Of a stretch of DNA of 15,432 bases, positions 1-15,432 are shown one piece after another (position 1 is the stretch's first letter; each line of letters begins with the position of its first letter). Source of the DNA: Candidatus Thorarchaeota archaeon. GTDB taxonomy: Archaea > Asgardarchaeota > Thorarchaeia > Thorarchaeales > Thorarchaeaceae. The stretch covers positions 1 to 15,432 of the forward strand of contig PRDH01000055.1 in assembly GCA_003345545.1 (NCBI GenBank), written 5' to 3'. Made by a program: the position numbers and the translations under genes. A model generated the notes under the pieces. It saw only the letters and a program-made list of their open reading frames with translations, made no database searches and was not told the origin of the DNA.

Positions 1-27
1 TTAGCACTGCTTTTGCGGCCAATGTCG

Positions 28-3000
28 TTATGCTCTCGCATTCAGCTCCCTATCCACAATCTTGATCAGAACTTCAATCCGCTTGACTAGAGCTTGCTTT
101 AGCTTAAGTCCAGGGTCGGTAAGATCTTCCTCAAGTATGATTTCACCGAATGCCTTAACATATAGGTCATACGCATTTCGCAGCTCTTCTTTCACTGAGA
201 GGAGCACCTTTGTGTCCATTGCAGGAATTTGTTCTTGAAGTTCTCTCAGCCAATCAAGACTTGCGAGAATCTCCTCCCGTACCTTCACGGGGAGTTCTGC
301 CTCCTCCATGGACATCACTCGTTCAGGCCCTAGTGCTTTTTCAAGCGCTGCAACTCTCCGCCTTGTGCGCCTGACGTATAGTGCGCCTCCAACTCCGACT
401 AGTCCTATCACGCCAAATGTCGCGATGCCCATAGCAGTGCGCACAGGGAACCAATTGATGGTTGGATAGAGCCCTCGTTGATCCACTTGGGTCAACCCAT
501 ACGGGTCCATGATTTCCTCTATGATGTATTGCATAGTTCCAGCCCCCTGTGATGTTACATTGAGCTCCCATCTCTGTCTTTCTGCAACAAAGATTGCATT
601 TTGTCCATTGACAATCACAGTTGTGTTTGAATCTGAGAGGGCTGCACCATCTGACATGTAGTTCAGGTAGAAGTAGACTGTGACAGTCCACTCCAGCTCG
701 CATTGCAGTACCCGTCCTGCAGGTGAGTCTATTTCTGGGTCAAAAGCTGGAGCACTGCCCCACACTCCTGCGCGTGATACATAGATCAAATCCCAAGTGG
801 TTGTGCAGGTGAACTCAGTCCCCCCATCTATTACCTGTATGCCTCCAACCAGATCCAAATGTCCTGTGATACTGTAGCTATGAGTGCTGACCTCGCCTGA
901 GGTCACTGTGATATACCAGTAACTCTCTGTCGATAGAAATGTAGCCTTCACACCATTGATGTATATCTCTCCATCACTATCTGTGAACAGCGAACCGGTG
1001 TAGGATCTTCGAATACGGAACATAACATCAACTTCCTGACTAAGATCGGCGCGAGTCCGCTGAGATTCGCTCCAAAACACCTCGAGTTGATCCCAGATTA
1101 TATACTCGGCATCACTGTTGCTGATGAGAGAGACACCATGACCTACTGGGATGGCCAAGACGCACATGTATGCCCTACGACCCACAGTGCCATATTCGTA
1201 GGTCGTGTCGTTAAGCACCAGTGTTCCTATGTATGGCAATCCGTCGTAGTCAAAGGTTCCACTGACCAGGATGGAAGCATTGGTTCCTACGGTGATGTAG
1301 CGATTTCCAACTACCACTCTCACTGTGATTGAGTCCCAGGTGACGTAGATTCGTCCGCTCAACCGAATCTGTGTGATATTGTAGGTGTCTCCACTGGCTG
1401 AGGCACAAGTGTAGCCCTTTCTTCCAACAGAGTAAAGAATGTACACTGTGTCATTCAGAGTCAGCACTCCATCATACATCTTACCATCATAGTCATAGAG
1501 CGCATAGACTTGGATAGAGGCATTTCGACCGACATTGATATGCACACTGTTATTCAGGACATATACTCGAAGTGAGTCCCAAATGATGTATTCTTCATCA
1601 CTATATCCAATCACGGTTATGCCGTGAATTCCACCTGAGGCGACTGAAGCGGTGTATCCACGACGACCTACTGTGCCGTACTGATAGACTGTGTTATTCA
1701 GCGTGATGATTCCATCATAAGGAGTGCCATCGAAGGCATATATGGCTGAAATCCCTATTGTTGCGTTCTCCCCAACATTAATCCGGTTATCAGCAACGAT
1801 AAGCATTACCCTTAAGCAATCCCATATCATCGACGGTGACGTGACACGCTGATCGTATTGCGCTATCCCATTCACGTCGACTCCTGTGACACTCCAGATT
1901 AGACGAATGACACTTGCGCTTGACCAAGTGAGATCGATCCAGCCGCTGCCATTAATTGCATAGGGGGTCATATTGACGAAGAGAGACCCTTTAGTAACAG
2001 CGCTTCCATTTGTTGACCACTTGCAGTGGAAATAGACAGTCACATCAGTAACAATGTCTATTCTTCCATCTACATCACTTGCAAAGGCCATGTCAATAAC
2101 AACTACGGGACGCTCAGTCCACGTGACTATCAATAGATTAGCACTGAAGACTTGCAGTCCGTATTGATCATCTATCGCGCTGATCACGGTATAAATCCAG
2201 GTAGCATCAACTGGGCCATCCCACACATCAGAGAAATTGCCAACTACAAAGAACGATTCGTTTCTGTTCACCGAAGCTGTTAGTAGTTGAACTCGACCGC
2301 CATCGTAGTCCCTGGTGGCAATAAGTGTGAAGTTTACCAGTGAATGCCAATTGACAAGGAGCGCGTCGGCACTCAACACAACTTCAATCTTGTCCCAGAT
2401 TATAGAAACTGGAGCAGCCGGATATTCTACCGCTGTCAGTTCATGAAGGTCGTCAGTGACTCCTGATACTTGAAACTGCCATCGTCCGGTTACCATGTAC
2501 ACTCTATTCTGATACCAATGCATGAGCGACTGATTCCAAATCATGCTTGTACCGTTCAGATAGACTGTTCCGAGGGACCCAGTGAGAATTGTCGAGTCGT
2601 ATTCATATTCTACGGTTGCATAGATGGATTGAGTTGTTCCTACGTCGCAGTGTTCGTCTGAAACTGTATACGGCAACACGCGTAGTCGATCCCAAATTAC
2701 ATAGTCCTCATCATTGATAGATATCACATCAATGCCATAAGAATCGCCTGCAGCAGTCGCAATTGTGTACGACCATCGACCAACTTCATCATGAACGTAC
2801 GTCGTATCATTGAGAACAATGAATCCATCATAGATTGCTCCATCATAATCGTAGACAGCGGTCACATAGATTGAGGCGTTACCTCCGATATCGATTCTGT
2901 GGTCCTGAATTGTTAGGCTCACAGTCAAGGAGTCCCATATGATGTTCATCCATTGAGAGTTCTGGTCAACAGCAGTGATATGATATTCATTGTCTCCGCA

Positions 3001-6000
3001 CGAAACAGAATCAAAGAGTCTTCCCATAGCTGAGGACTCAGTCCGAACATGCTGCCAGATGCCCGCTTCAAGGTGAGTAAAGCTATAACCATTGACACTG
3101 ACTGCTCCGTCTGTTACTGGTGAGTCATCGAACTCATAGTGGAGTGTGACATTAATCCATGTGTACGACCCGATGTTGTTCCTAGAGTCACTTGAATCGT
3201 ATGCCATGACTTTTATTCTGTCCCATATGACGACTTGTGATTGAAGGTTTTGGTTCACGCTTGTTATTCCATATTGATTGTCGGTACAGACAACTAGGTC
3301 ATAAGTGTTGGATGTAACGATTGATTCTGAGGTGGCAATCCTCCAAATGCCAGATCCGTTGTACGTGGCTGGGACACCATTGATACTCACTGAACCATCT
3401 GAAACATCTGCATCATCATACTCGTACTCGAGATTGACATAAACATTGACGACATCGTTTAGATTTGCTCGACTGTCCGCAACAGAGTATCCCCTGACAG
3501 TTATCTGATCCCACGTCACGCTCTGTGACTGCCCGTTCTGACTGACCTGAGTAATACCAAGAGTGTTTCCTAATGCTGCCACATCATTATAGATACGACC
3601 TGTAACACTCGACTCGCTAGCGGTGATTTGCCAAATACCCAACCCTGCGTGGGTTGCTCCTATTGTATTCACTGTCACCATGCCATCTGTCACAGGTGCG
3701 CTGTCAAATTCATAGATTAGCGTCACTTCAATTGTCACAATGTCACCGATGTTGACTCGTGCATCCGCAACAGAATAGGACTCTACAAGAATTCTATCCC
3801 AGACCTGACCCAGAGACTGGCCGTTCTGATCAACTGAGCTAATTCCATATGTATTGCCTGAAGCAAGTACTGTGTCATAGGTGACCAATTGTACACCTGT
3901 CCTAACCTCGCTGAAGTCCCAGATTCCATTGGCGCCTGAGTAGACCGCAGCTACGCCATTTACCGAAACCGTTCCATCTGTCACGTATGAGCTGTCGTAA
4001 CTGAACTGCAACATGACATGACACGACGAGGCAGATCCTATGCTGATACGCTGGTCATCAGATGCATAGGAAAGCACAAGCACCTGGTCCCAAATACATT
4101 CAACGGACTGACCGTTGAGGTTGAGAGCGCTTATGCCATATGTGGTCTCCACCGAAGCATTGACAAAGTAGGTCCATTTACCAACAGAGGACCGGCTCCT
4201 TGCGAGTTCAAACCAAAAGCTACCAGGATCCCATGTCATAGGGGCACCATCTAGAGTGACACTATCGCCCGATCCCAGACTAGACTGGTCATACTCCAGC
4301 CATAATCTGACCCGTATCTCCACAGAACTCCCAACGCTCACTCTTCCATCGCTCACTGAGATTGCAGAGACCGCGACTCTATCCCAAATGATGTCGACGC
4401 TTCGTCCGTCAAGACTTAGCGCTGTTATCCCATAGACTGACTCAGCTGAGGCGTTGACATAGTATCTCCATCGCCCTACTGCTGACTGACTCCGGCTCAG
4501 TTCAAACCGCGAGTCTGCGGTATCCCACGTCATAGCTTGACCATCTAAGGTAACAGAGTCTCCAAGGCCGAGGAACGTATGGTCATACTCTAGCCAGAGG
4601 GTAACCCTTACCTCGACAGCTTGAGTAACACTCACCCTACTATCATCAACCACAGTGCTACGCACGACAATACGGTCCCAGACAATGAAGGCATCGGGAG
4701 CGGTCTGAATCCATGAGTTCAGTCCATATGTGCTATCGACTGCCAGCGCTATAGCGTACCCCACGCTCTTGACTGAACTCTGCACCTCAGTGTATATCCA
4801 ATGAGAACCGTTCCATGACAGAGCTTTAGAACCATTCAGTGATACAACCAGACCCGAAGAGATTGCCACGTCACCGTAGTCATAGCGTGCACTCCAGTAG
4901 ACACGACCCTGTGTATTGACATTGATCCTCGAGTCGTCTACTCCTGAGATATAGAACTCAATCCTGTCTGTGACAAATGTGTCCGTGCGTGAACTCGCGT
5001 AGTAGAGGTCCATACCACCAGCTCCTGCACCTTCTGACACGACCTTGAATGTGTAGAGGTTCAGTCTTACCAGGCTTGACGAGCCTATGTTAGTCACAGT
5101 GAATTGACCGCTTCCGTCAACATCAGTGGACCACGTTCCTGAAACGTCGTGTATCACCCACACATCGGTCTCATTGGCAAGAGGATGGAGGTTTGATGAA
5201 CCATAGTAGATGAGTGTGGAACTCGCCCACAAGTTCGAGGTTGAAATGTCACCCCGGTCATCCGAGAGAGATGGAGCCGTAGCGTAGTTGAGTCGTGTCT
5301 CAGTGTCCCAGTCGACCTCATAGAAGTCCTCGTCGCTATCTGAGCCATCTGTCACATACTGCCTCATGTCGATGTTCACTAGATCCGGATGGTCCCAATC
5401 GACCTTAATGACCCAAGTTATATCGAATCCAGTTGACCGACTTGATGCAGATGCCCAGCTTCCCAGGGCCACATACTCTGAGCCCTGTGCGATGGAGAAT
5501 GAACCGGTCAAGACAGCATAGCGAATGGTCCATACCAAGAGTGACCTTGTGTCATCGTATAGGGACAATTCAACGAAGTCGATGTCTGCAGACCCATCTA
5601 GGTCAGTCACGCTGGAGGTTACAGTATAGAACCGATACCGTGCATAGAGATTGTCAGTATCGTCTGCGTTCGTAATCTGTGGCGCCACGTCGTTTGTCGG
5701 GATCTCATTCGGTGCAATGGACCATGTGACCTGCAGAGTATTCGTGGTGAATGCAGTGATTCCATATAGCGACTCAGCCGTGATAGCAGTACTGGTGTAC
5801 TGATACGAAGTATCGGCATGAGTATCCACGAAGAGCGACGTGTTTGCATTTATGAACGACCTCCAGTGAGTTCCGTTCCTACTTATCATAACCTGATAGG
5901 TCGAGCATTGAGTAGAATCATAAGCGAACACAACAGTCAATGTGAAGTTCGCCTGGTGGTCATTGTAGGGTGTGCCATCGTCAACTCCGATGGTGACCAT

Positions 6001-9000
6001 CAGCCTATCGAATACACAATAGGTTTCAGCATTTGTACTAATGGCCGATATGCCATATATGCCTCCAGACGCGGACGCCACAGAATATCCATATCTGCCC
6101 ACAATTACGTGGTTGAATGTGGTATCATTCAACAAAAGGACACCATCGAATGTTGACGAATCGTAGTCATACATGGCGGATACTACTATCCCGGACGCAC
6201 TCGTGTTGATGTTGATCCGTTGATCTACGGGATTGCTGATGTAGATTGTCAGAGAGTCCCATATACAGAAAGTCACATCATTGGATGAGATCACAGTTAT
6301 TCCATATGCATCATTACCTAGAGCTGCACTGACAGTATAGTCTTTCCTCTGCGCAACACTGTATTGGAAGACGTTATTATTGAGTACTAGTGTGCCAGTG
6401 TATAGTGTGCCATCATAATCGTACGTGGCTGACACTGTAATTCCTGATGCATTCGTGTAGATGTTGATCCGCTGGTCACTTGGCCCCGTTATCAGGATGG
6501 TCAAGCTGTCCCAGATGCAATAGACCTCGTCGTTGGTACCGATTGCTGTAATTCCAAAAGCGTCATTTCCAGCAGCGGCGGAAACTGTGTAACCCTGCTT
6601 CTGAGCCGTAGCATACATGTACTGTGTGTTGTTAAGAGATAATGTCCCATCATATGTGGCGCCATCATAGTCATAGACTGCACTCACTTGGATAGTCGCA
6701 CTCGCACCGACATTGATTCTGTTATCAGCGATGGAGAGAGAGATGGCGAGAGAGTCCCAGATAATAGATGTTCCAAGACCCGGAGCGACCATATTCAGTC
6801 CATGGAAGGTGTCTGTTATTGAGGTCACAACAAACATGACTCGACTCATTATTGGTGAACTACGTTGCTGTTCCCACCGATAATCCACTGGATCCCAGGT
6901 CATGCTTGTCCCATTCAGATAGACAGTGCCTCTTGTGCCAGTGAATACAACATCGTCATACTCGTAGATCACCACTGCTGCTATGGTCTGGATGGATCCA
7001 ACGTTACACCGGGCATCACTGACCGAATAACTGGTCACCCGTAATCTGTCCCAAATGATAGACTCCACGTCGTTTGTCCCTATCACTGTGATATCATGTG
7101 AGTCTCCGGACGCAGAGATGACTGTATAGCTGTGCCGCCCAACGCTACTGAACAGGTAAGTTGTATCGTTCAGTACGAGTGTGCCATCGTAGGTCAGCTG
7201 ATCATAGTTATAGACAGCGCTGACATAGATGGAGGCATTCTGACCTATATTGATTCTGGAGTCTGAAACAGTGATTGTGATTGTCAAAGAGTCCCAGATG
7301 GCATACGTTTCGTCATTCGCGGCTATCGCAGTTATACCATGAGTGCCGCCTCCCGCTGACTGGACCTCGTACCCCCTCCGCCCGAATGTAGAGCGCTGGA
7401 AAACAGTATCATTCAGAATCAGGGACCCGTCGTAAGCACTACCATCGAAGTCGTATACCGCTGTGACTACGATTCCACTGGCATTCTCATTGAGATTGAT
7501 TCTCTGGTCGACCGGGTCAGTGATTGATATTGTCAGAGAGTCCCAGATCTGTTGTAAGGATTGGGCATTCTGATTAGTGATAGATATCCCGTACAAGTTG
7601 CCTGAAACAGTAACTGTGTCATAGACTACTAGCTGAGCTGTGGCCCTCGTAGCTCCGAAGTTCCAGATTCCATTTGCTCCACTATATGCAGCTATGACTC
7701 CGTTGATAGTGGTTGAGCCATCCGTCACCGGGCTGGAGTCATACTCATAGCGAAGAGTCACATGGTCACTAGCCGCAGTGTTGATGTTGATTCGGTTATC
7801 ATCAGTGGAGTAGGACACGACAATCACTCTGTCCCAGATGATGGACTGCGTCTTGGCATTCTGGTTGACATTTGTGATGCCATATAGATTGCCTGAACAT
7901 GTGACCAAGTTGTATATGTTCTGGACAACTGAAGGCTCACTGTCGACAATCCTCCAGACTCCAGAAACCTGATGAACAGCGCTTACACCATTTATCGTAA
8001 CGGTTCCGTCTGTTACAGGGCTGTCATCATACTCGTACTCGATTGTGACATCGACGTTCACATTCTCGTTTACATTTGCACGGGCATCGCTGGCCGCATA
8101 CCCTCGCACAGCGATTTGGTCCCATATGACTTGCAGCGACTGGGAGTTCTGGTCAACGACCGTGATGCCTAATACGTTCCCTGTACATGCAACAGAATTG
8201 TAGGCATTCGCAGTCACAATAGATTCAGTATCAGTTATGCGCCACACTCCAGAGCCCTGATGTGTTGCTGAGATACCATTGACAGTAACAGATCCATCTA
8301 CAACGGGTGAATCATCGTACTCGTATTCGATAGTGACATCTACAAGCGCGTTGTCGTTGATATTGACCCTTGCATCGACAGCAGAATAGCTCCTAACAGT
8401 AATCTTGTCCCAAATAACTGTCAGTGATTTTCCATTCTGATCGACAACATCTACTCCATGCAATCCACCAATATGAGTGACCGTATTGTATACCACTGCA
8501 GTCACGACAGTTTCAGAATCAGAGAATCTCCAGACACCAGACCCCTGGTGAGTCGCTGCGAATCCGTTGACAGTCACTAGACCACTAGTGACTAGTGTGT
8601 TATCGTAGTCATAGTATAGAGTCACGTCTATGATTACAACGATATTGATGTTCACCCTTGTATCCGTAATCGTATATGATTGAACCTGGACTCGGTCTGC
8701 AACGTACGTGTCTTGGACTACGTTTTGAAGCAGATTCGTGTCACCTGAACTACCGCCTTCCTTGACCACAGTTACAGTGTATGTGTCTATCCCGACTCCG
8801 TCATCTGCGTAGCAAGTCACGCTAAAGGCTCCTGATTCCAACTCCTGGTCTGACCAGGGCCCTATATTGGTTCCATACTCGGATGATGAAACCCAAATGT
8901 CTGTTTCATTGGACAGAGGATTCAACAATGATCCGAAATACGATATGACCCCTGATATGGTGAAGCTTCCATCGAGAGAGCCTCTGTCGTTAGTACCAGA

Positions 9001-12000
9001 ATCGTCGTCCAAAGTGAGTCCAGTGGTTACTACCCGAGTTTCGACGTCCCAGTTCTCTTCATAGAAGTCCTGATCGAAATTGGTCCCGTCATTCACATAC
9101 TGTAGGACATCGACATCTACCAAATCTGCATGGTCCCAATCTATCTTGATTTGCCATGATACACTGATGCTGCTTCCAAAGACAGAAACCGACGACCATG
9201 TCGCGAGTTCGACGTAGTCTGAACCGAACTCGACAGTGAAGGTGTCACCAGAAACCGTGTACCTGACGACCCACACAACCTCCGTACGTGCGTCATTGTA
9301 GAGCGTCAGCTCAATGTAGTCGATATCCCAACCACCATCACCATCGCTGACATTTGATATAATGGTGTAGAACTTATACCGTGCATACATGTTGTCTGTG
9401 TCATCTGCATTCAACAACTCTGGGGCGGAATCGTTTGTTGGAGCCTTGTTTGGTTCTGCAGACCATGACACCCACTGGGCGCTGGTTGTGAAAGCTGTGA
9501 TTCCATATAGGGTTTCAAGGTTCACACCAGAAACGATGTATTCATAGATTACCTCACTATTCCTATCGACAAACAGGCTCCTATTCGAATACGTGAATGT
9601 GTGCCAATGGGTCGCGTTGCGGGCCACTCTGACTTCGTATGATGTGCAGGCTATTCCATCAGACTCAAAAGTGATGGTCAGAGTGAAGTTCACTTGGATG
9701 TCGTTGTAGGGACTTGATGAGTCTGCAGATATGATGATGTGGAGACGATCCCAGATGCAATAGGTCTCGTCGTTCAGCGAGATGGCTGAGATACCATAGA
9801 GATCATTGCCTGCAGCATTTGCCACCCTGTATCCTCTACGGCCTGCAGTAGAATGCTGGAAGATTGTGTCATTCAGATTCAGTGTTCCCGTGTATTGAGT
9901 AGAGTCGTAATCATAGATTGCTGTGACGATGATGCCTGACGCATTCTGGTTGATGCTAATCCTTTGGTCAACTGGGTCCGTGATGGTTATTGTTAGAGAG
10001 TCCCAGATGCAATACGTGGCATCATTTGTGCTAATCACGGTGATCCCATAGGAGTCGTCACCTATAGCTGTCGCGACTCTATAGCCTTGCTTCTGTGCAG
10101 TAGGATACATGAACATCGTATTGTTGAGAGTAAGAGTCCCATCATAACTCGAACCATCGTAGTCATAGATAGCTGATACCACGATGCCAGACGCATTGGT
10201 GTTGATGTTGATCCGCTGGTCAGTCGGCCCTGCTATCAGAATGGTCAGGCTATCCCAGATGCATGACTCAATATCATTGGTGCCAATCACTGTGATGTCA
10301 TAGATGAAATCGCCTGCGGCACTCGATACGGTGTACCACTGTATCTGCGCAGTTGGATAGCTGAACTGAGTGTTGTTGAGAGTCAGGGACCCCTCGTAGC
10401 TAGTCCCATCATAGGCATAAGTGGCACTTGCCTGAACGGAGGCAACTTGATTGATGTTTATTCGATTGTCCACAATTGCGATACTGATAGTCAGCGCATC
10501 CCATATGATGGCGGGGCGGGCTGTAGTCTGAAAGACACTAATGCCATGATATGTGTCAGTGATTGCCGACACACCGAACACGAGGCGTCCCACCACGGAG
10601 GAGGTTCTCTCCTGGCTCCATCGATATGCAACTCCATCCCAGACCATTGCGGAACCATTGAGGTACACCGTCCCTCTTGCACCCGAGAAGAGGGTGGAGT
10701 CATACTCGTACACTACTATCGCTGTAACATTCTGAATAGAACCTACATCACACCGAGAATCAGTGACTGAATAACTGATCACTCTCAGCTGGTCCCATAT
10801 CTGGCTCGCACTCTGCCCGTTCTGGTTGACGGAGGTTATTCCATGGGTGTTTCCAGATGCTACAACACTGTTGTATGTAAAGAGCTGAACTGCTCCTCTT
10901 GCCTCAGCAAAGTCCCAGATACCGTTTGAACCTGAATACGTTGCGACTACGCCGTTTACAGTAATTGCCCCATCCGCTACGTATGTGCTATCATAGGTGT
11001 ATTGAAGAGCCACATGACCGGAACATGCTGTGCCAACATTGATGCGGGTATCGTCCGAATAGAGCGCAATCACAATTATCCGATCCCAGATGATGGTCGT
11101 GGACTTCGAACTCTGGTCAACAACAGTAATTCCTAAAGTATTCCCGGATACTGCAACATTGTTGTAGGTGTTATCTCCCACAGATACCTCGGAGTCGGTG
11201 ATTCTCCAGATGCCGGACCCTTGATTCGCGGCAAGGATTCCGTTGATGGTCACTGTGCCATCAATCAGCGGTGAGTTATCAAAGTCATAATAGAGTGTCA
11301 CATCAACGGTCACACTATCGCCGACATTGACACGGGAATCCGATACAAGATAGGACTGGACCTGAACCCTGTCCCATATGATTATGATAGCTTGCGCATT
11401 CTGATTCACGGAAGTGATTCCATGAGTGTTCCCAGATACTGTCACAGAATCATAGGTCTCCGAGGTGACAGCGGCTTGAATCCTAGTTGCAGACCACTGA
11501 CCACTAGAGCCCGTGTAGGTGAATGTAACGCCATCTACTACGACTATACCATTGATCACATCAGAGTCGTCATACTCGTATTCGAGCACAACGTAGACTA
11601 TGATTGAGTCCCCTACATTATCACGGGTATCCGATGCAGAATAGCTCCTCACGGTCACTTGGTCCCATATGACCTCCTGCATCTGTCCATTCTGGTTCAC
11701 ATTCGTTATGCCATATGAATTGCCAGAGCACACCACTGCGTTGTATACGTTGGAAATCACAATGATCTCTGTGTCTGTTACTCGCCAGACACCAGATCCT
11801 ATGTGGCTTGCACTCAATCCATTTATCGCGACTGCACCATCAGTCACGGGACTGTCATCGTACTCGTATTCCAGCGCTACGTCGACGTTGACACCGGTGC
11901 CCAGATTCACTCTGCTGTCTGCAACCGAATAGCCTCTCACGGCCACTTGGTCCCACACAACAAGCTGGGTCTGCCCGTTCTGGTACACAGCAGTGATCCC

Positions 12001-15000
12001 TTGGCCGTTCCCTGCGCAACTAACGGAGTTGTATGTGCTTCCAGTCACAGAGGCCTCTGCAACTGTTATTCGCCATATGCCAAGTCCCTGATAGGTGGCG
12101 GAGACACCGTTCACGCTCACAGAACCATCCATAAGGTCAGTGCTGTCGTATTCGTATTCCAGTTCAACGTCAATGTTGACTATGTCATTCAAGTTGACTC
12201 TCGCATCGACGACAGTGAATCCTCTCACGATGATGCGATCCCAGACGACCTGTTGCGACTGGCTGTTCTGATCTACAACAGAGATACCGTTAGAATTGCC
12301 TGACACCATTACCAAGTTGTAGGTGTTCGACACAACTGATGACTCAGAATCGACAGCTCTCCAGACCCCCAACCCTTGATATGTGGCTGCCAGACCGTTG
12401 ATGGCCACACTTCCATCAGTCACAAATGAGTCATCATAGTCGTAGCGCAAGATCACGTCAATGTTTACGTTATTACCCACGTTGACGCGAGAGTCCGTCA
12501 CAGTATATGACTGCACTTGCACCCTGTCCCAGATCTGGCCGAGACTCCGCCCATTCTGGTCAGCCGTATCTATGCCATACGTATTACCTGACACTAGAAC
12601 ACTGTCGTATGTAAAGAGCTGGACTGCTACCTTAATCTCACTGAAGTCCCACACTCCACTCGAACCTGAATAGGTCGCACCAACACCATTGACAGTCACA
12701 GTGCCATCAACCACTATTGCTTCGTCATAGTCATAATGTAGGATGACATGGCACGAACTGGATGCGCCCACATTGATACGTGAGTCATCTGAGGAATATG
12801 AAACGACCACGACTTGATCCCATATACACCAGGTCTGGTCGTTGACGCGTATGACTGTGATCCCATAGGCGTCATTACCAGCTGCACTCGCGGCTGCGTA
12901 CCCCTGTCTGCCCACGACAGCATAGGTGAATACTGTATTGTTGAGGGTGAGTGTGCCATCATAGGGAGTGGAGTCGTAGTCATAGAGAGCTGTGACGACG
13001 ATTCCAGATGCGTTTTCACCTATGTTTATGCGCTGGTCTGTGGGATTGGTTATTGTAACCGTAAGGCTGTCCCAGATGCACCAAGTGACATCGAATGATG
13101 AGATTGCAGTGATAGCATAAGCATCATCTCCGTTCACAGATGTGACATAGTACGCCTGTTTCTGCGCTGTGGCATACTGAAACACTGTGTTATTCAAGTT
13201 GAATGATCCTTCATAGATTGCGGAATCGTAGTCGTACGTGATGACAATCACGATACCAGACGCATTGCTGTTGACGTTGATTCGCTGGTCTGAAGGGTCG
13301 GTTATCGAGATGCTCAGACTGTCCCAGATGACTAATTGAGTCTGAGAATTCTGATTGACGGAGGTTATTCCATGGACGTTTCCACTGCAGACAACGCTGC
13401 CGTAGGCGACTCCTTGGGCGGGACTACGCGATTGTGTTATTCTCCAGACTCCCGCTCCCTGATGTGAAGCTATGAATCCATTGATTGCTACAGTTCCAGT
13501 TGTAACATCAGAATCATCATATTCGAACTCAAGGGTGACGTAGATGTATACATCGGTGTTAATATCCACCCTGTCATCAATAACCGAATAGCCCCTGACA
13601 ACAATCTCATCCCAGATGACACTCTGAGACAGACCATTCTGGTCAACCTGACTTATCCCATAGAGGTTCGCGGAGCATGCCACAGTGTCATAGGTGACTG
13701 ATTGTGCCGTGAGCCTGTTCTCAACTATCGTCCAGACTCCTGACCCGAGATGACCTGCACTAATATCGTTGATAGTGACTGCTCCATCAGTGACAGGAGA
13801 ATTGTCGTAATCGTACACCAGAGTGACATCGATGTTGACATCATCGTTGATATTCGCGTGTGCGTCGTCAACAACATAGGATTGCACTTGCACTCTGTCC
13901 CAGATCTGGTCCAGTGTCATCCCATTCTGATTGACAGAGGTTATTCCGTGTATGTTGCCCGAAGCCACAACACTGTTGTAGGTCAACAGCTGGACTGCTA
14001 GTCTGACCTCACCAAAGTTCCAGACTCCGTTTGAACCTGAATATGTTGCACTGATACCATTGACGGTGACGGCCCCATCGACGACAAAGGATCCATCGTA
14101 TTCATACTCTAGAGTGACATGGAGGGTGCTTGGGGTGCCTACATTGATCCGTGAGTCATCAGTGGAGTATGAAACGACGACGACTTGGTCCCAGATACAC
14201 CACGTCAAATCGTTCTGGCGTATGGCTGCAATGCCATAGGGATCATCACCGACCGCACTGGCTACTGTGTATCCCCTTCGACCTACTGTTGAATACTGGA
14301 AGATCGTGTCATTCAGATTGAGTGTGCCATCATAGGGTGTGAAGTCATAGTCGTACATCGCGATGACAACTATTCCTGACGCGTTGGTGTTGATATTCAC
14401 TCTTTGGTCCAAAGGATCACTGATGGCGATTGTCAGGGAGTCCCAAATACAATATGTCTCATCGTTCAACCTGATAGCACTAATTCCATACGTTCCGCCT
14501 GATGCAGACAGAACTCTATAACCCTGCTTCTGAGCAATAGCATAATTGAAGACCGTGTTGTTGAGGGTGAGTGTGCCATCAAAGGGAGTGGAGTCATAAT
14601 CATATACCGCTGTGACAATGATTCCTGTTGCATTCTCATTTATGTTGATTCTCTGATCTGGTGGCCCAGATATGGTGATCGTCAGGCTATCCCAGACGAC
14701 CTGTTGTGACTGTCCGTTTTGGTTGACCAAGCTTATCCCATTAGTGTTTCCGCTACATGCTATGCTGCTGTATGTAACACCTTGTGCGACGCTCCTTGAT
14801 TGCACCAACCTCCAGACTCCCGCACCTTGGTGAGTGGCCAGGAGGGTGTTGATTAGTACCGTACCATCTATAATTGGTGCGCTGTCATACGCATACGCGA
14901 GAGTCACATCTACATTTACGCTGGTGCCGATATTCACCCGAGTGTCGGCTACCACGTATCCTTGTACTACAACCTGGTCCCAAATCACAAGCTGCGTCTG

Positions 15001-15432
15001 ACTGTTCTGGTCAACGGCTGCTATTCCATAGGAGTTCCCGGACACTGCAACTGTATCATAGGTGTTTCCCACCACAGACAGCTCGCTGACGGATATCCTC
15101 CAGATGCCTGATCCCCGATTGGTTGCCACTATCGAGTCTATTGTGACTATGCCATCAGTCACTTGAGAATTGTCGTAGTCATAATAGAGTGTGACATCAA
15201 CATTCACCGAATCGCCAACGTTTACTCGGGAGTCCGTCACAGTATATGACTGCACTTGCACTCTGTCCCAGATTTGGGACTGTGTCTGACCGTTCTGATT
15301 GACGACACTGATTCCGTGTTGATTTCCTGAAGTGACCACATTATCATATGTGAGCATCTGTACACTCACGCGGGTCTCACCGAAGTTCCAGATGCCACTA
15401 GCTCCAGAGTAGGTGGCACTTAGTCCATTGAC
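28..15432 (-). CDS. Giant repetitive membrane-anchored cell-surface protein (adhesin/filament-like), 5'-partial, at least 5134 aa
   Basis: Single uninterrupted frame ending in TAA at 28-30. Upstream of the tracked GTG at 15369 the frame continues to the edge as VNGLSATYSGASGIWNFGETR, which is the middle of a class-B repeat, so the true start lies outside the window. Tandem beta-rich modules are followed by a C-terminal hydrophobic helix, basic cluster and cytoplasmic tail. Confidence 0.96.
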   Translation of the reverse strand, partial: VNGLSATYSGASGIWNFGETRVSVQMLTYDNVVTSGNQHGISVVNQNGQTQSQIWDRVQVQSYTVTDSRVNVGDSVNVDVTLYYDYDNSQVTDGIVTIDSIVATNRGSGIWRISVSELSVVGNTYDTVAVSGNSYGIAAVDQNSQTQLVIWDQVVVQGYVVADTRVNIGTSVNVDVTLAYAYDSAPIIDGTVLINTLLATHQGAGVWRLVQSRSVAQGVTYSSIACSGNTNGISLVNQNGQSQQVVWDSLTITISGPPDQRININENATGIIVTAVYDYDSTPFDGTLTLNNTVFNYAIAQKQGYRVLSASGGTYGISAIRLNDETYCIWDSLTIAISDPLDQRVNINTNASGIVVIAMYDYDFTPYDGTLNLNDTIFQYSTVGRRGYTVASAVGDDPYGIAAIRQNDLTWCIWDQVVVVSYSTDDSRINVGTPSTLHVTLEYEYDGSFVVDGAVTVNGISATYSGSNGVWNFGEVRLAVQLLTYNSVVASGNIHGITSVNQNGMTLDQIWDRVQVQSYVVDDAHANINDDVNIDVTLVYDYDNSPVTDGAVTINDISAGHLGSGVWTIVENRLTAQSVTYDTVACSANLYGISQVDQNGLSQSVIWDEIVVRGYSVIDDRVDINTDVYIYVTLEFEYDDSDVTTGTVAINGFIASHQGAGVWRITQSRSPAQGVAYGSVVCSGNVHGITSVNQNSQTQLVIWDSLSISITDPSDQRINVNSNASGIVIVITYDYDSAIYEGSFNLNNTVFQYATAQKQAYYVTSVNGDDAYAITAISSFDVTWCIWDSLTVTITNPTDQRINIGENASGIVVTALYDYDSTPYDGTLTLNNTVFTYAVVGRQGYAAASAAGNDAYGITVIRVNDQTWCIWDQVVVVSYSSDDSRINVGASSSCHVILHYDYDEAIVVDGTVTVNGVGATYSGSSGVWDFSEIKVAVQLFTYDSVLVSGNTYGIDTADQNGRSLGQIWDRVQVQSYTVTDSRVNVGNNVNIDVILRYDYDDSFVTDGSVAINGLAATYQGLGVWRAVDSESSVVSNTYNLVMVSGNSNGISVVDQNSQSQQVVWDRIIVRGFTVVDARVNLNDIVNIDVELEYEYDSTDLMDGSVSVNGVSATYQGLGIWRITVAEASVTGSTYNSVSCAGNGQGITAVYQNGQTQLVVWDQVAVRGYSVADSRVNLGTGVNVDVALEYEYDDSPVTDGAVAINGLSASHIGSGVWRVTDTEIIVISNVYNAVVCSGNSYGITNVNQNGQMQEVIWDQVTVRSYSASDTRDNVGDSIIVYVVLEYEYDDSDVINGIVVVDGVTFTYTGSSGQWSATRIQAAVTSETYDSVTVSGNTHGITSVNQNAQAIIIIWDRVQVQSYLVSDSRVNVGDSVTVDVTLYYDFDNSPLIDGTVTINGILAANQGSGIWRITDSEVSVGDNTYNNVAVSGNTLGITVVDQSSKSTTIIWDRIIVIALYSDDTRINVGTACSGHVALQYTYDSTYVADGAITVNGVVATYSGSNGIWDFAEARGAVQLFTYNSVVASGNTHGITSVNQNGQSASQIWDQLRVISYSVTDSRCDVGSIQNVTAIVVYEYDSTLFSGARGTVYLNGSAMVWDGVAYRWSQERTSSVVGRLVFGVSAITDTYHGISVFQTTARPAIIWDALTISIAIVDNRININQVASVQASATYAYDGTSYEGSLTLNNTQFSYPTAQIQWYTVSSAAGDFIYDITVIGTNDIESCIWDSLTILIAGPTDQRININTNASGIVVSAIYDYDGSSYDGTLTLNNTMFMYPTAQKQGYRVATAIGDDSYGITVISTNDATYCIWDSLTITITDPVDQRISINQNASGIIVTAIYDYDSTQYTGTLNLNDTIFQHSTAGRRGYRVANAAGNDLYGISAISLNDETYCIWDRLHIIISADSSSPYNDIQVNFTLTITFESDGIACTSYEVRVARNATHWHTFTYSNRSLFVDRNSEVIYEYIVSGVNLETLYGITAFTTSAQWVSWSAEPNKAPTNDSAPELLNADDTDNMYARYKFYTIISNVSDGDGGWDIDYIELTLYNDARTEVVWVVRYTVSGDTFTVEFGSDYVELATWSSVSVFGSSISVSWQIKIDWDHADLVDVDVLQYVNDGTNFDQDFYEENWDVETRVVTTGLTLDDDSGTNDRGSLDGSFTISGVISYFGSLLNPLSNETDIWVSSSEYGTNIGPWSDQELESGAFSVTCYADDGVGIDTYTVTVVKEGGSSGDTNLLQNVVQDTYVADRVQVQSYTITDTRVNINIVVIIDVTLYYDYDNTLVTSGLVTVNGFAATHQGSGVWRFSDSETVVTAVVYNTVTHIGGLHGVDVVDQNGKSLTVIWDKITVRSYSAVDARVNINDNALVDVTIEYEYDDSPVVDGSVTVNGISATHQGSGVWRITDTESIVTANAYNSVACTGNVLGITVVDQNSQSLQVIWDQIAVRGYAASDARANVNENVNVDVTIEYEYDDSPVTDGTVTINGVSAVHQVSGVWRIVDSEPSVVQNIYNLVTCSGNLYGITNVNQNAKTQSIIWDRVIVVSYSTDDNRININTAASDHVTLRYEYDSSPVTDGSTTINGVIAAYSGANGIWNFGATRATAQLVVYDTVTVSGNLYGISITNQNAQSLQQIWDSLTISITDPVDQRINLNENASGIVVTAVYDFDGSAYDGSLILNDTVFQRSTFGRRGYEVQSAGGGTHGITAIAANDETYAIWDSLTITITVSDSRINIGQNASIYVSAVYNYDQLTYDGTLVLNDTTYLFSSVGRHSYTVISASGDSHDITVIGTNDVESIIWDRLRVTSYSVSDARCNVGSIQTIAAVVIYEYDDVVFTGTRGTVYLNGTSMTWDPVDYRWEQQRSSPIMSRVMFVVTSITDTFHGLNMVAPGLGTSIIWDSLAISLSIADNRINVGASATIQVSAVYDYDGATYDGTLSLNNTQYMYATAQKQGYTVSAAAGNDAFGITAIGTNDEVYCIWDSLTILITGPSDQRINIYTNASGITVSATYDYDGTLYTGTLVLNNNVFQYSVAQRKDYTVSAALGNDAYGITVISSNDVTFCIWDSLTIYISNPVDQRININTSASGIVVSAMYDYDSSTFDGVLLLNDTTFNHVIVGRYGYSVASASGGIYGISAISTNAETYCVFDRLMVTIGVDDGTPYNDHQANFTLTVVFAYDSTQCSTYQVMISRNGTHWRSFINANTSLFVDTHADTSYQYTSTAITAESLYGITAFTTNTLQVTWSIAPNEIPTNDVAPQITNADDTDNLYARYRFYTVTSSVTDLDGSADIDFVELSLYDDTRSLLVWTIRYAVLTGSFSIAQGSEYVALGSWASASSRSTGFDITWVIKVDWDHPDLVNIDMRQYVTDGSDSDEDFYEVDWDTETRLNYATAPSLSDDRGDISTSNLWASSTLIYYGSSNLHPLANETDVWVIHDVSGTWSTDVDGSGQFTVTNIGSSSLVRLNLYTFKVVSEGAGAGGMDLYYASSRTDTFVTDRIEFYISGVDDSRINVNTQGRVYWSARYDYGDVAISSGLVVSLNGSKALSWNGSHWIYTEVQSSVKSVGYAIALAVDSTYGLNSWIQTAPDAFIVWDRIVVRSTVVDDSRVSVTQAVEVRVTLWLEYDHTFLGLGDSVTLDGQAMTWDTADSRFELSRSQSAVGRWRYYVNASAESVYGITALSLDGRSVDIIWDRVAVSAISVSDGRVSVGSSVEIRVRLWLEYDQSSLGSGDSVTLDGAPMTWDPGSFWFELARSRSSVGKWTYFVNASVETTYGISALNLNGQSVECIWDQVLVLSYASDDQRISIGSASSCHVMLQFSYDSSYVTDGTVSVNGVAAVYSGANGIWDFSEVRTGVQLVTYDTVLASGNTYGISSVDQNGQSLGQVWDRILVESYSVADARVNIGDIVTIEVTLIYEFDSAPVTDGMVTVNTIGATHAGLGIWQITASESSVTGRIYNDVAALGNTLGITQVSQNGQSQSVTWDQITVRGYSVADSRANLNDVVNVYVNLEYEYDDADVSDGSVSINGVPATYNGSGIWRIATSESIVTSNTYDLVVCTDNQYGITSVNQNLQSQVVIWDRIKVMAYDSSDSRNNIGSYTWINVTLHYEFDDSPVTDGAVSVNGYSFTHLEAGIWQHVRTESSAMGRLFDSVSCGDNEYHITAVDQNSQWMNIIWDSLTVSLTIQDHRIDIGGNASIYVTAVYDYDGAIYDGFIVLNDTTYVHDEVGRWSYTIATAAGDSYGIDVISINDEDYVIWDRLRVLPYTVSDEHCDVGTTQSIYATVEYEYDSTILTGSLGTVYLNGTSMIWNQSLMHWYQNRVYMVTGRWQFQVSGVTDDLHELTAVEYPAAPVSIIWDKIEVVLSADALLVNWHSLVNFTLIATRDYDGGRVQLLTASVNRNESFFVVGNFSDVWDGPVDATWIYTVISAIDDQYGLQVFSANLLIVTWTERPVVVIDMAFASDVDGRIDIVTDVTVYFHCKWSTNGSAVTKGSLFVNMTPYAINGSGWIDLTWSSASVIRLIWSVTGVDVNGIAQYDQRVTSPSMIWDCLRVMLIVADNRINVGENATIGISAIYAFDGTPYDGIITLNNTVYQYGTVGRRGYTASVASGGIHGITVIGYSDEEYIIWDSLRVYVLNNSVHINVGRNASIQVYALYDYDGKMYDGVLTLNDTVYILYSVGRKGYTCASASGDTYNITQIRLSGRIYVTWDSITVRVVVGNRYITVGTNASILVSGTFDYDGLPYIGTLVLNDTTYEYGTVGRRAYMCVLAIPVGHGVSLISNSDAEYIIWDQLEVFWSESQRTRADLSQEVDVMFRIRRSYTGSLFTDSDGEIYINGVKATFLSTESYWYITVTSGEVSTHSYSITGHLDLVGGIQVIDGGTEFTCTTTWDLIYVSRAGVWGSAPAFDPEIDSPAGRVLQCELEWTVTVYFYLNYMSDGAALSDSNTTVIVNGQNAIFVAERQRWELNVTSQGAGTMQYIIEEIMDPYGLTQVDQRGLYPTINWFPVRTAMGIATFGVIGLVGVGGALYVRRTRRRVAALEKALGPERVMSMEEAELPVKVREEILASLDWLRELQEQIPAMDTKVLLSVKEELRNAYDLYVKAFGEIILEEDLTDPGLKLKQALVKRIEVLIKIVDRELNARA
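31..372 (-). other. 114-aa cytoplasmic alpha-helical tail
   Basis: Abrupt switch to E/K/L/R-rich amphipathic sequence broken by Pro/Gly residues (VREEILASLDWLRELQEQIP; VLLSVKEELRNAYDLYVKAFG; LKLKQALVKRIEVLIKIVDRELNARA). Confidence 0.8.
373..438 (-). other. Single C-terminal transmembrane helix
   Basis: TAMGIATFGVIGLVGVGGALYV (22 uncharged residues) immediately followed by RRTRRR (355-372), consistent with the positive-inside rule. Confidence 0.9.
1096..1824 (-). repeat. Three tandem 81-aa class-C' modules near the membrane
   Basis: WD junctions at 1824, 1581, 1338, 1095, exactly 243 nt apart. Motif VG.NA[ST]I......[FY]DG..Y.G...LN[ND]T.Y.....GR..Y. Confidence 0.88.
4093..4971 (-). repeat. 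Class-H modules (one divergent + two closely related, 97-98 aa)
   Basis: Two adjacent copies share RVSV...VE.RV.LWLEYD...LG.GDSVTLDG..MTWD....FEL.RS.S.VG.W.Y.VNAS.E..YGI.AL.L.G.SV (4680-4387 and 4386-4093). Confidence 0.85.
4972..7053 (-). repeat. Seven-module cassette D-C'-C-C-E-F-G, copy 2
   Basis: Module lengths 98, 82, 84, 83, 96, 138, 113 aa, offset 3741-3744 nt from copy 1, same motif order. Confidence 0.9.
5311..5724 (-). other. Class-F module copy 2, 138 aa, cadherin-like/Ig-like with putative Ca2+-binding acidic motifs
   Basis: PNEIPTNDVAP, NADDTDN, DLDGSADID (5578-5604), VDWDHPD. Confidence 0.5.
8701..10797 (-). repeat. Seven-module cassette D-C'-C-C-E-F-G, copy 1
   Basis: Module lengths 98, 82, 84, 84, 96, 138, 117 aa. 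Unique motifs GTVYLNG, PYND.Q.NFTLT, RN.THW, NADDTDN.YARY and WD.ETR are shared with copy 2. Confidence 0.9.
9052..9465 (-). other. Class-F module copy 1, 138 aa, cadherin-like/Ig-like with putative Ca2+-binding acidic motifs
   Basis: PNKAPTNDSAP, NADDTDN, DGDGGWDID (9319-9345), IDWDHAD. The N-x-x-P start and DxDG loop resemble prokaryotic cadherin-like domains (inference). Confidence 0.5.
12532..15432 (-). repeat. Higher-order repeat B-A-A-C-C, period 1368-1371 nt (456-457 aa)
   Basis: WDRVQVQSY junctions at 15270, 13902, 12531; WDQVVVVSYS junctions at 14193, 12822; C-C pairs at 14694-14194 and 13326-12823. Confidence 0.9.

Follow-up and report, generated by a model that had tools for sequence, protein, structure and literature searches.

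In integrins and cadherins, the tail is for the most part an unfolded peptide bound by a folded adaptor, and a layout that joins the cell surface to the cytoplasm is otherwise associated with such eukaryotic adhesion receptors. Asgard archaea count longin domains and expanded TPR proteins among their eukaryotic signature proteins, and to our knowledge almost no Asgard longin or expanded TPR protein has a known physical partner. The DNA analysed here, referred to as the window, comprises positions 1 to 15,432 of contig PRDH01000055.1 (assembly GCA_003345545.1) from a Candidatus Thorarchaeota archaeon, and carries the 3' part of a giant surface-protein gene. The C-terminal tail of the encoded protein lies behind a single transmembrane (TM) helix and is predicted to fold into a three-helix bundle. 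In related genomes, a gene for a putative TPR-longin protein directly adjoins the tail-encoding end. It appears fairly probable that the tail is a cytoplasmic docking domain for this dedicated adaptor, the two forming a receptor-adaptor pair.

Like the integrin beta-talin and cadherin-catenin systems, this locus combines a very large modular ectodomain, one TM segment and a tail that is predicted to recruit a soluble helical-repeat adaptor. There is, however, no homology between the systems, and the tail itself is folded here. The adaptors also differ, in that the one described here carries a longin domain, whereas integrin and cadherin adaptors carry FERM or armadillo domains; no actin link is shown here. 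With prokaryotic surface proteins of the PGF-CTERM/archaeosortase, LPXTG/sortase and PEP-CTERM types, the giant protein has several features in common: it begins with a signal, its very large ectodomain is repetitive and probably glycosylated, and near the C-terminus basic residues come after a hydrophobic helix. Unlike them, it does not end a few basic residues past the helix to be cleaved. No PGF-CTERM, LPXTG or PEP-CTERM motif occurs before or within the helix (…INWFPVRTAMGIATFGVIGLVGVGGALYV), and 114 conserved, folded residues follow it in place of a short basic tail. The features of the window are as follows, with tail residues numbered according to P0002:5013-5134 and confidence given as the predicted local distance difference test (pLDDT).

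Window 28-15432, minus strand: giant surface-protein gene, 3' part; a single open frame fills nearly the whole window.
Window 373-435, minus strand: single C-terminal TM helix AMGIATFGVIGLVGVGGALYV, the last hydrophobic stretch of the giant protein.
Window 331-372, minus strand: basic juxtamembrane helix RRTRRRVAALEKAL, net charge +5, ending at a G-P break.
Window 289-330, minus strand: acidic linker GPERVMSMEEAELP, modelled with low confidence (pLDDT <50 for residues 23-32).
Window 220-288, minus strand: predicted bundle helix 1 VKVREEILASLDWLRELQEQIPA, with a conserved W-L, ending at an I-P motif.
Window 133-213, minus strand: predicted bundle helix 2 TKVLLSVKEELRNAYDLYVKAFGEIIL, holding the invariant E71 and the A..Y..AF motif.
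Window 34-114, minus strand: predicted bundle helix 3 PGLKLKQALVKRIEVLIKIVDRELNAR, with the invariant E117.
Window 28-30, minus strand: stop codon of the giant gene.

Exactly 114 residues follow the TM helix (window 31-372, minus strand), namely RRTRRR and 108 more before the stop codon. A first-pass annotation of this DNA had placed the tail at precisely these coordinates and described it as a folded cytoplasmic helical bundle, a description borne out by a confident AlphaFold2 model and by conservation among orthologues. Without an alignment, single-sequence AlphaFold2 already gives the membrane helix and three further helices (pLDDT 71). With 22 homologues, the mean pLDDT is 80.9 and the pTM 0.71, and the tail helices span residues 37-59, 62-88 and 95-121, with 10-residue block means of 86-98. 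In both models, one continuous helix runs from the hydrophobic stretch into RRTRRRVAALEKAL; in the alignment-based model, it passes through this segment, and about ten residues after it (GPERVMSMEE) have a pLDDT <50. A D-P-G break separates helix 2 from helix 3. The same annotation had counted at least three amphipathic segments separated by Pro/Gly breaks. Segments and breaks are indeed present, but only helix 2 clearly beats shuffled sequence in hydrophobic moment (0.40 against a shuffled mean of 0.19, a value reached by 2.3% of shuffles), helices 1 and 3 being not clearly above it; the label "amphipathic" therefore rests mainly on the fold model. The model thus speaks against a disordered tail or a simple coiled coil: a single chain forms the three-helix bundle, which stands on a short stalk. 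The tail probably sits in the cytoplasm, because a basic cluster follows the helix and the ectodomain is sequon-rich, as expected under the positive-inside rule.

This domain is well conserved and narrowly distributed. A HMMER search of 1.84 billion representative proteins returned 23 tail matches, of which 19 have E <= 1e-10. Pfam gave no family for the tail at E <= 1, a PDB sequence profile search gave nothing below E 0.05, and the best E-value of a Foldseek search with the tail model was 0.78; among the matches listed there was no MIT chain, the domain to which the tail had been likened by eye. The ESM-Atlas fold search recovered generic bundles alone (BAG, PhoU, TerB, STAT) at a TM-score <= 0.60; the nearest solved folds are the BAG, GAT and Nas2-N three-helix adaptor bundles. 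Across the alignment, the segment R-T-R-R-R-V..LE.AL.PE..LS.EE is fixed, helices 1 and 2 are joined by an I-P turn with an invariant I and a nearly invariant P, and the glutamates E71 and E117 do not vary. Nearly all homologues end 0-3 residues after helix 3 (six residues in one). Compared with distant orthologues, the tail is 36-46% identical and the 465 ectodomain residues before it are 27-36% identical; the highest identity, 50-71%, falls on the first 24 tail residues. The juxtamembrane helix and acidic linker together, RRTRRRVAALEKALGPERVMSMEE (window 289-372), show 50-100% identity across orthologues, the top value of the C-terminal region.

A tail profile was run over 400 Asgard genomes, comprising 85 others of the host's own taxonomic family and 315 from outside it. 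Matches occurred in 19 of the 85, across four genera, a figure that is a lower bound because giant repeat genes assemble poorly. No true match was found among the 315; a lone hit in genome G302 is a DnaK lid and was rejected as a false positive. In relatives, the same tail is also found on other proteins; in the host genome, no second copy was detected at E <= 10. Judged by its sequence, the tail is a new, previously undescribed domain family of ~115 residues with clear boundaries.

The adjoining gene bears on what this domain may do. When the downstream DNA of eleven tail loci was compared, one gene family always adjoined the tail, whereas all other flanking genes varied (MFS, GNAT, ABC permease and others). 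A profile of this adaptor family, searched over 86 genomes of the taxonomic family, identified 18 orthologues at E <= 1e-143. Seventeen of these lie 10-90 nucleotides (nt) from the tail-encoding 3' end and the remaining one is cut by a contig edge; they occur across four genera. A second set of matches, at E 1e-49 and weaker, consists of ~680-residue paralogues present in 15 of 16 genera. In genome G322, the adaptor gene and the giant gene are co-directional across a 14-nt gap, whereas in the 10 further loci with an examined gene map they converge. In G338, two giant genes each have their own adaptor copy.

The adaptor has ~348 residues, or 490-552 in the subgroup nearest to the host window, where an acidic N-terminal extension is added. 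It has no clear membrane segment by eye, its highest 19-residue hydropathy window being 1.29-1.64, which borders the 1.6 threshold in one copy. The N-terminal half matches the Pfam models TPR_12 (21.5 bits, cut-off 30.1) and TPR_2 (20.8 bits, cut-off 27), both below threshold. This half is homologous to the last repeats of the ~680-residue paralogues, whose upstream repeats score well above the TPR cut-off, and language-model features place the adaptor at 0.93-0.96 to Asgard TPR clusters. The C-terminal ~135 residues align with Asgard Fuz_longin_1-type segments over 122 columns (hhalign 98.45%, E 4.2e-15); PF19036 had supplied the 14 Asgard segments used for this comparison, of which four pass the curated cut-off. 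This likeness to Asgard Fuz_longin_1-type longins, and to eukaryotic longin subunits of guanine nucleotide exchange factors or adaptors, belongs to the adaptor and not to the tail. Language-model features give 0.86-0.87 between the C-terminal domain and longins, which is a lead only. The adaptor differs from Fuz_longin_1-type longins in that the Pfam hidden Markov model (HMM) does not reach it and in its fusion to TPR-like repeats; no Pfam model reaches the C-terminal domain, the longin and Roadblock HMMs included, and a PDB profile search of it was also empty. With a TPR-like N-terminal half and a longin match in the C-terminal domain, the neighbour is therefore, as far as its sequence can tell, a TPR-like plus longin-like cytoplasmic protein.

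Two other identities were considered and rejected. A Roadblock/LC7 assignment of the C-terminal domain is opposed by an hhalign probability of 0.62% against 17 Asgard Roadblock proteins and by the silence of the Robl_LC7 HMM on adaptor loci. The tail is also not a detached copy of the TPR repeats that the ~680-residue paralogues carry upstream of their adaptor-like part, its hhalign probability being 0.21% against these paralogues and 0.29% against the adaptor.

The paralogues themselves (loci L099-L111, e.g. L099:385-2415) consist of a long TPR array and a longin-like domain. In five of six loci examined, the gene after the paralogue encodes a conserved product of ~475 residues with the start MT..EIL.IL..GE..N.EFK. 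Elsewhere among Asgard genomes, a P-loop motif (…GFGGVGKTT) stands immediately behind some Fuz-type longin segments, as in L144 (G304:C1:1070744-1071019) and L152. This arrangement suggests putative longin-GTPase fusions, which are relevant to the possible partner of the adaptor's longin domain.

Co-folding of the two proteins is consistent with direct binding. The input consisted of the G362 adaptor copy (L042:356-1381, minus strand; 11-row alignment) and tail residues 9-122 (22-row alignment). The resulting interface score (ipSAE) was 0.78, with individual runs at 0.79, 0.77 and 0.78, whereas each of the three controls scored 0.00. At least 63% of the contacts are common to the runs, and the partner pLDDT does not fall below 77. 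In calibration, 58 of 80 solved complexes attained this ipSAE mark, as did 2 of 110 mismatched pairs, proportions that hold only roughly here, where custom alignments were used. On the adaptor side, the predicted interface comprises residues 22-36, 39 and 62, that is, the first helix with the invariant G25, Y31, R33 and G34. On the tail side, helix 1 contributes E42, S46, W49, L50, L53 and Q56, and the bulk of the interface is formed by helix 2 (V64, S67, V68, E71, L72, N74, A75, L78, Y79, K81, A82, F83). A second conserved stripe on helix 1 (S46, W49, L53) falls within this interface. Matches of the ~680-residue paralogues begin at profile position 30-33, and they therefore have no recognisable first half of the docking helix. 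A solved look-alike complex is an unlikely source of the score, because neither partner has a PDB relative by sequence. The co-fold model supports binding and does not demonstrate it. The receptor-like layout that the first-pass annotation had proposed gains computational support from the folded and conserved tail, the TPR-longin gene adjacent to it in 17 loci, and the ipSAE of 0.78.

A mechanism can be proposed in which the ectodomain, with 6,600 sequon-rich and probably glycosylated residues, lies outside the cell, one TM helix crosses the membrane, and the bundle sits just beneath it. The tail would consist of the basic juxtamembrane helix, the conserved acidic linker and an autonomously folding three-helix bundle of ~85 residues. 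The face formed by helices 1 and 2 (W49/L50, E71 and A..Y..AF) would clamp the exposed first helix of the adaptor, and through the adaptor the surface filament would be linked to cytoplasmic proteins of the longin type, probably related to small GTPases. The bundle may further serve as a common address tag that recruits several membrane proteins to one adaptor.

The occurrence of the domain on other proteins bears on the last of these steps. IWD-repeat surface proteins make up most of the carriers. Among the others are mini proteins of 140-145 residues that consist of an N-terminal TM helix and the tail only (P0005; G338:C28, L041:1159-1596; G373:C62, L040:7528-7950); their neighbours include a GlmS-like gene, assigned by eye. 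P0004 carries two tails in tandem. P0007 (L038:2019-4400, G322:C217) is a 793-residue multipass protein with a weak PMT_2 (GT-C) match that bears the tail in a predicted cytoplasmic loop (residues 232-352). Compared with its 684-residue orthologue in G362 (L042:13322-15376), it shows 41-47% identity on either side of an insert. This ~110-residue tail insert is found only in the P0007 lineage and is missing from the G362 orthologue and from that of the host genome (L082:1710-3878, G000:C56). In G322 and G362, the GT-C gene lies ~14-20 kb from the 3' end of the giant gene, and the DNA between them encodes a GT1 enzyme, a Wzx-type flippase and a polysaccharide deacetylase in G362 and further glycan-modifying genes in G322. 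That the domain recurs on mini membrane proteins and within the loop of a glycosyltransferase hints at a role as an address tag, by which several membrane proteins would be brought to one adaptor.

P0023 (L009:467-1066, on a 1-kb contig of a JGI metagenome) is a soluble protein of 199 residues with a receiver-like N-terminal domain and tail helices 2-3. Its Response_reg score of 21.8 bits is below the cut-off, and the carrier is known from this single 1-kb contig. It could be a regulated soluble competitor or regulator. Short complete carriers also exist, such as P0012, whose 490 residues comprise a signal, a few modules, a TM helix and the tail. Tail-bearing IWD-repeat genes can be tandem, and one is followed, 230 nt on, by the signal-peptide start of another giant gene (L032:1405-2667, G379:C70).

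From the computed fold, conservation, distribution, gene adjacency, longin homology and co-fold with its clean controls, we infer the binding of tail and adaptor in cells and everything downstream of the adaptor. Several observations weigh against this pairing. All of its support is computational. The adaptor gene was not found in the host assembly by tblastn or profile search, because the contig ends 27 nt after the stop codon. Two contigs of G379, a 65%-complete genome, hold tail genes without an adjacent adaptor: on G379:C70, the tail gene is followed by another giant gene, and on G379:C135 (L034) the contig breaks off 0.47 kb past the second of two tandem tail genes. The mini TM-tail proteins and the GT-C insert likewise have no adaptor gene alongside. 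In most loci, the pair is convergent and therefore not an operon. Co-variation between the interface helices is visible over 16 pairs, but it follows clades; adjacent genes are inherited together, so it is not independent evidence and was not used. For the co-fold, the adaptor was taken from G362, the closest relative, which shares 94% tail identity with the host. The co-fold score is the model's own confidence, a mark that 7 of 44 blindly chosen neighbours passed in the tool's test. Finally, the linker, better conserved than any other segment, is not part of the confident predicted interface, which leaves the conservation of the juxtamembrane-linker region unexplained; this region may mark a second contact, a binding site or a processing site.

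A broader reading extends the receptor-adaptor pair to an outside-in coupling device of some Thorarchaeota, built of lineage-specific parts, in which a glycosylated adhesin filament of several thousand residues would be connected to a bundle that permanently docks the TPR-longin adaptor, the longin domain would provide the link to small-GTPase or trafficking machinery, and the portable tag would gather the glycosyltransferase and the mini proteins. Such a device, which would be a functional analogue of integrin and cadherin complexes, is put forward only tentatively and is doubtful as a whole.

Among the alternatives, the tail could be a handle for biogenesis or quality control. According to this explanation, tail and linker are transiently recognised during export, glycosylation and anchoring, and the TPR-longin protein is a chaperone or targeting factor that forms no standing link to any machinery. 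The juxtamembrane-linker region is the best conserved and yet is modelled without fixed structure, as short recognition motifs typically are; a glycosylation cluster (GT1, Wzx-like flippase, deacetylase, GT-C) borders the locus; a GT-C enzyme bears the same domain; and TPR proteins are common co-chaperones. The predicted interface, however, is located on the folded bundle and not on the linker, the known settings of longin domains are trafficking and the regulation of GTPases and not chaperoning, and the mini TM-tail proteins lack a large ectodomain in need of assistance. A role in biogenesis is therefore considered unlikely.

It is also rather unlikely that the domain serves homotypic clustering, in which the tails of giant, mini and GT-C proteins would bind one another into patches, with or without the adaptor. 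This idea draws on the presence of the same domain on several unrelated membrane proteins, once as a tandem pair, on the conservation of the predicted-interface bundle residues in all carrier contexts, and on structural neighbours, several of which are oligomerising bundles (histidine-kinase DHp domains, designed trimers). AlphaFold2 nevertheless closes the bundle within a single chain at high confidence, the host genome holds one tail copy, and clustering leaves the strict adjacency of the adaptor gene unexplained.

A passive anchor, that is, a bulky cytoplasmic stopper without a specific partner, would reduce gene adjacency to inherited synteny. No experimental partner is known and the pair is convergent, so it is not co-transcribed, as would suit such a stopper. 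The adjacency has nonetheless survived an orientation flip (G322), a locus duplication (G338) and the turnover of all other flanking genes, and the domain has been transplanted into other proteins. The conserved helix 1 stripe lies in the predicted interface, and the co-fold score is 0.78 against 0.00 for the best control. These points make a passive role improbable, and docking of the TPR-longin adaptor is retained as the preferred reading.

The remaining question concerns the MIT domain, which the first-pass annotation had suggested for the tail. MIT domains bind MIM helices in a groove between two bundle helices, as in Vps4, spastin and calpain-7 with ESCRT-III. The tail resembles this system in being a three-helix bundle of ~80 residues with a predicted partner helix in a groove, and in the A..Y..A pattern of helix 2, which is TPR/MIT-like by eye. 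In contrast to it, the tail shows no sequence or profile similarity to MIT domains. MIT domains are placed N-terminally on an ATPase or protease, whereas the tail is membrane-tethered at the C-terminus of a surface protein; the tail's predicted partner is the first helix of a TPR-like array, and the MIT partner is an ESCRT-III tail.

The MIT HMM (PF04212), run over 26 genomes at E <= 0.01, matched no tail locus, though six of the genomes carry the tail. It did match MIT-bearing frames of ~400 residues (Vps4-sized) and other proteins in these genomes, and the host genome encodes such an MIT-bearing, Vps4-sized protein (MIT hit at C44:125029-125202). When the 22-tail alignment was compared by hhalign with 21 Asgard MIT domains (hits of the MIT HMM, mostly Vps4-sized frames of ~400 residues), the probability was 0.55% (P 0.11) over 39 columns, which correspond exactly to the A..Y..A region flagged by eye. 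PDB profile echoes of the tail were non-significant (calpain-7 MIT region, E 1.1; TPR protein, E 0.21). No MIT chain was present among the 50 matches listed in any of three structure searches (Foldseek-PDB, VIA wide and VIA second look), no pairwise superposition on MIT being made. The tail shares with MIT domains a three-helix bundle of ~70-90 residues, a feature common to many unrelated families. MIT membership is rejected by sequence (Pfam, MIT HMM, hhalign) and has no structural support. The remaining resemblance is generic, that of a three-helix bundle predicted to accept a partner helix in its groove, as MIT does. A divergent MIT bundle that binds MIM motifs of ESCRT-III/CdvB-type proteins and couples the filament to membrane-remodelling machinery is thus highly improbable, for all that bundle size, weak echoes, predicted groove binding and a host MIT protein might recommend it, given that Pfam and the MIT HMM are silent at the tail, hhalign and the listed structural matches give no support, and the tightly linked gene encodes a TPR-longin protein, not an ESCRT component.

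In the literature, no paper was found that names DUF7738, the sole Pfam match in the giant ectodomain, and nothing was found on the tail or the tail-adaptor pair; a survey of huge proteins merely counts three in Thorarchaeota (PMC11573180). The pairing of this tail with a TPR-longin protein is thus undescribed as far as the literature searches reach, and the logic of a receptor tail plus adaptor is itself well known. The membrane-anchored three-helix domain and the TPR-longin protein of this locus make up a candidate pair open to bench experiments. Binding of the two would give a first clue to what an archaeal longin protein is attached to, and would demonstrate that a folded tail can connect a giant archaeal surface filament to proteins of the cytoplasm. 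Should the outside-in reading be true, it would represent an archaeal analogue of adhesion complexes in the prokaryotic group closest to eukaryotes. The compact new domain family is suited to Pfam and to structural study, and a tempting but unsupported ESCRT/MIT annotation is removed.

Beyond the tail, the open frame of the giant gene extends to position 19890 of the contig (G000:C55) and has a length of 6,620 codons. The N-terminus of the protein is basic and then hydrophobic, forming a signal-anchor-like segment, and the ectodomain is a series of repeat-rich, sequon-rich modules of ~80-140 residues. Close relatives of the C-terminal 335 residues occur in Candidatus Thorarchaeota archaeon SMTZ1-45 and in "uncultured archaeon" contigs. 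The host assembly is 2.69 Mb in size and 93% complete, and the contig terminates 27 nt beyond the stop codon. Window 1-1500 is also present in single contigs of two other wetland-metagenome runs (X2 and X5), one of them from a different study, with 3-4 differences and zero indels; three listed differences fall at 1402-1438, outside the tail. These contigs, 14.6 kb and 20.8 kb long, reach 3.5 kb (X2) and 11.2 kb (X5) past window position 1. As they run past the assembly break, the adaptor gene of the host strain should be recoverable from them. No RNA dataset was listed as containing window 1-1500.

A further gene accompanies some of the tail loci. In G362, the second gene downstream of the giant gene (L042:2126-7075, G362:C8) encodes a secreted protein of 1,649 residues with BNR_4 and DUF2341 matches, and homologues of this protein recur close to the tail-encoding end in G322 and G366.

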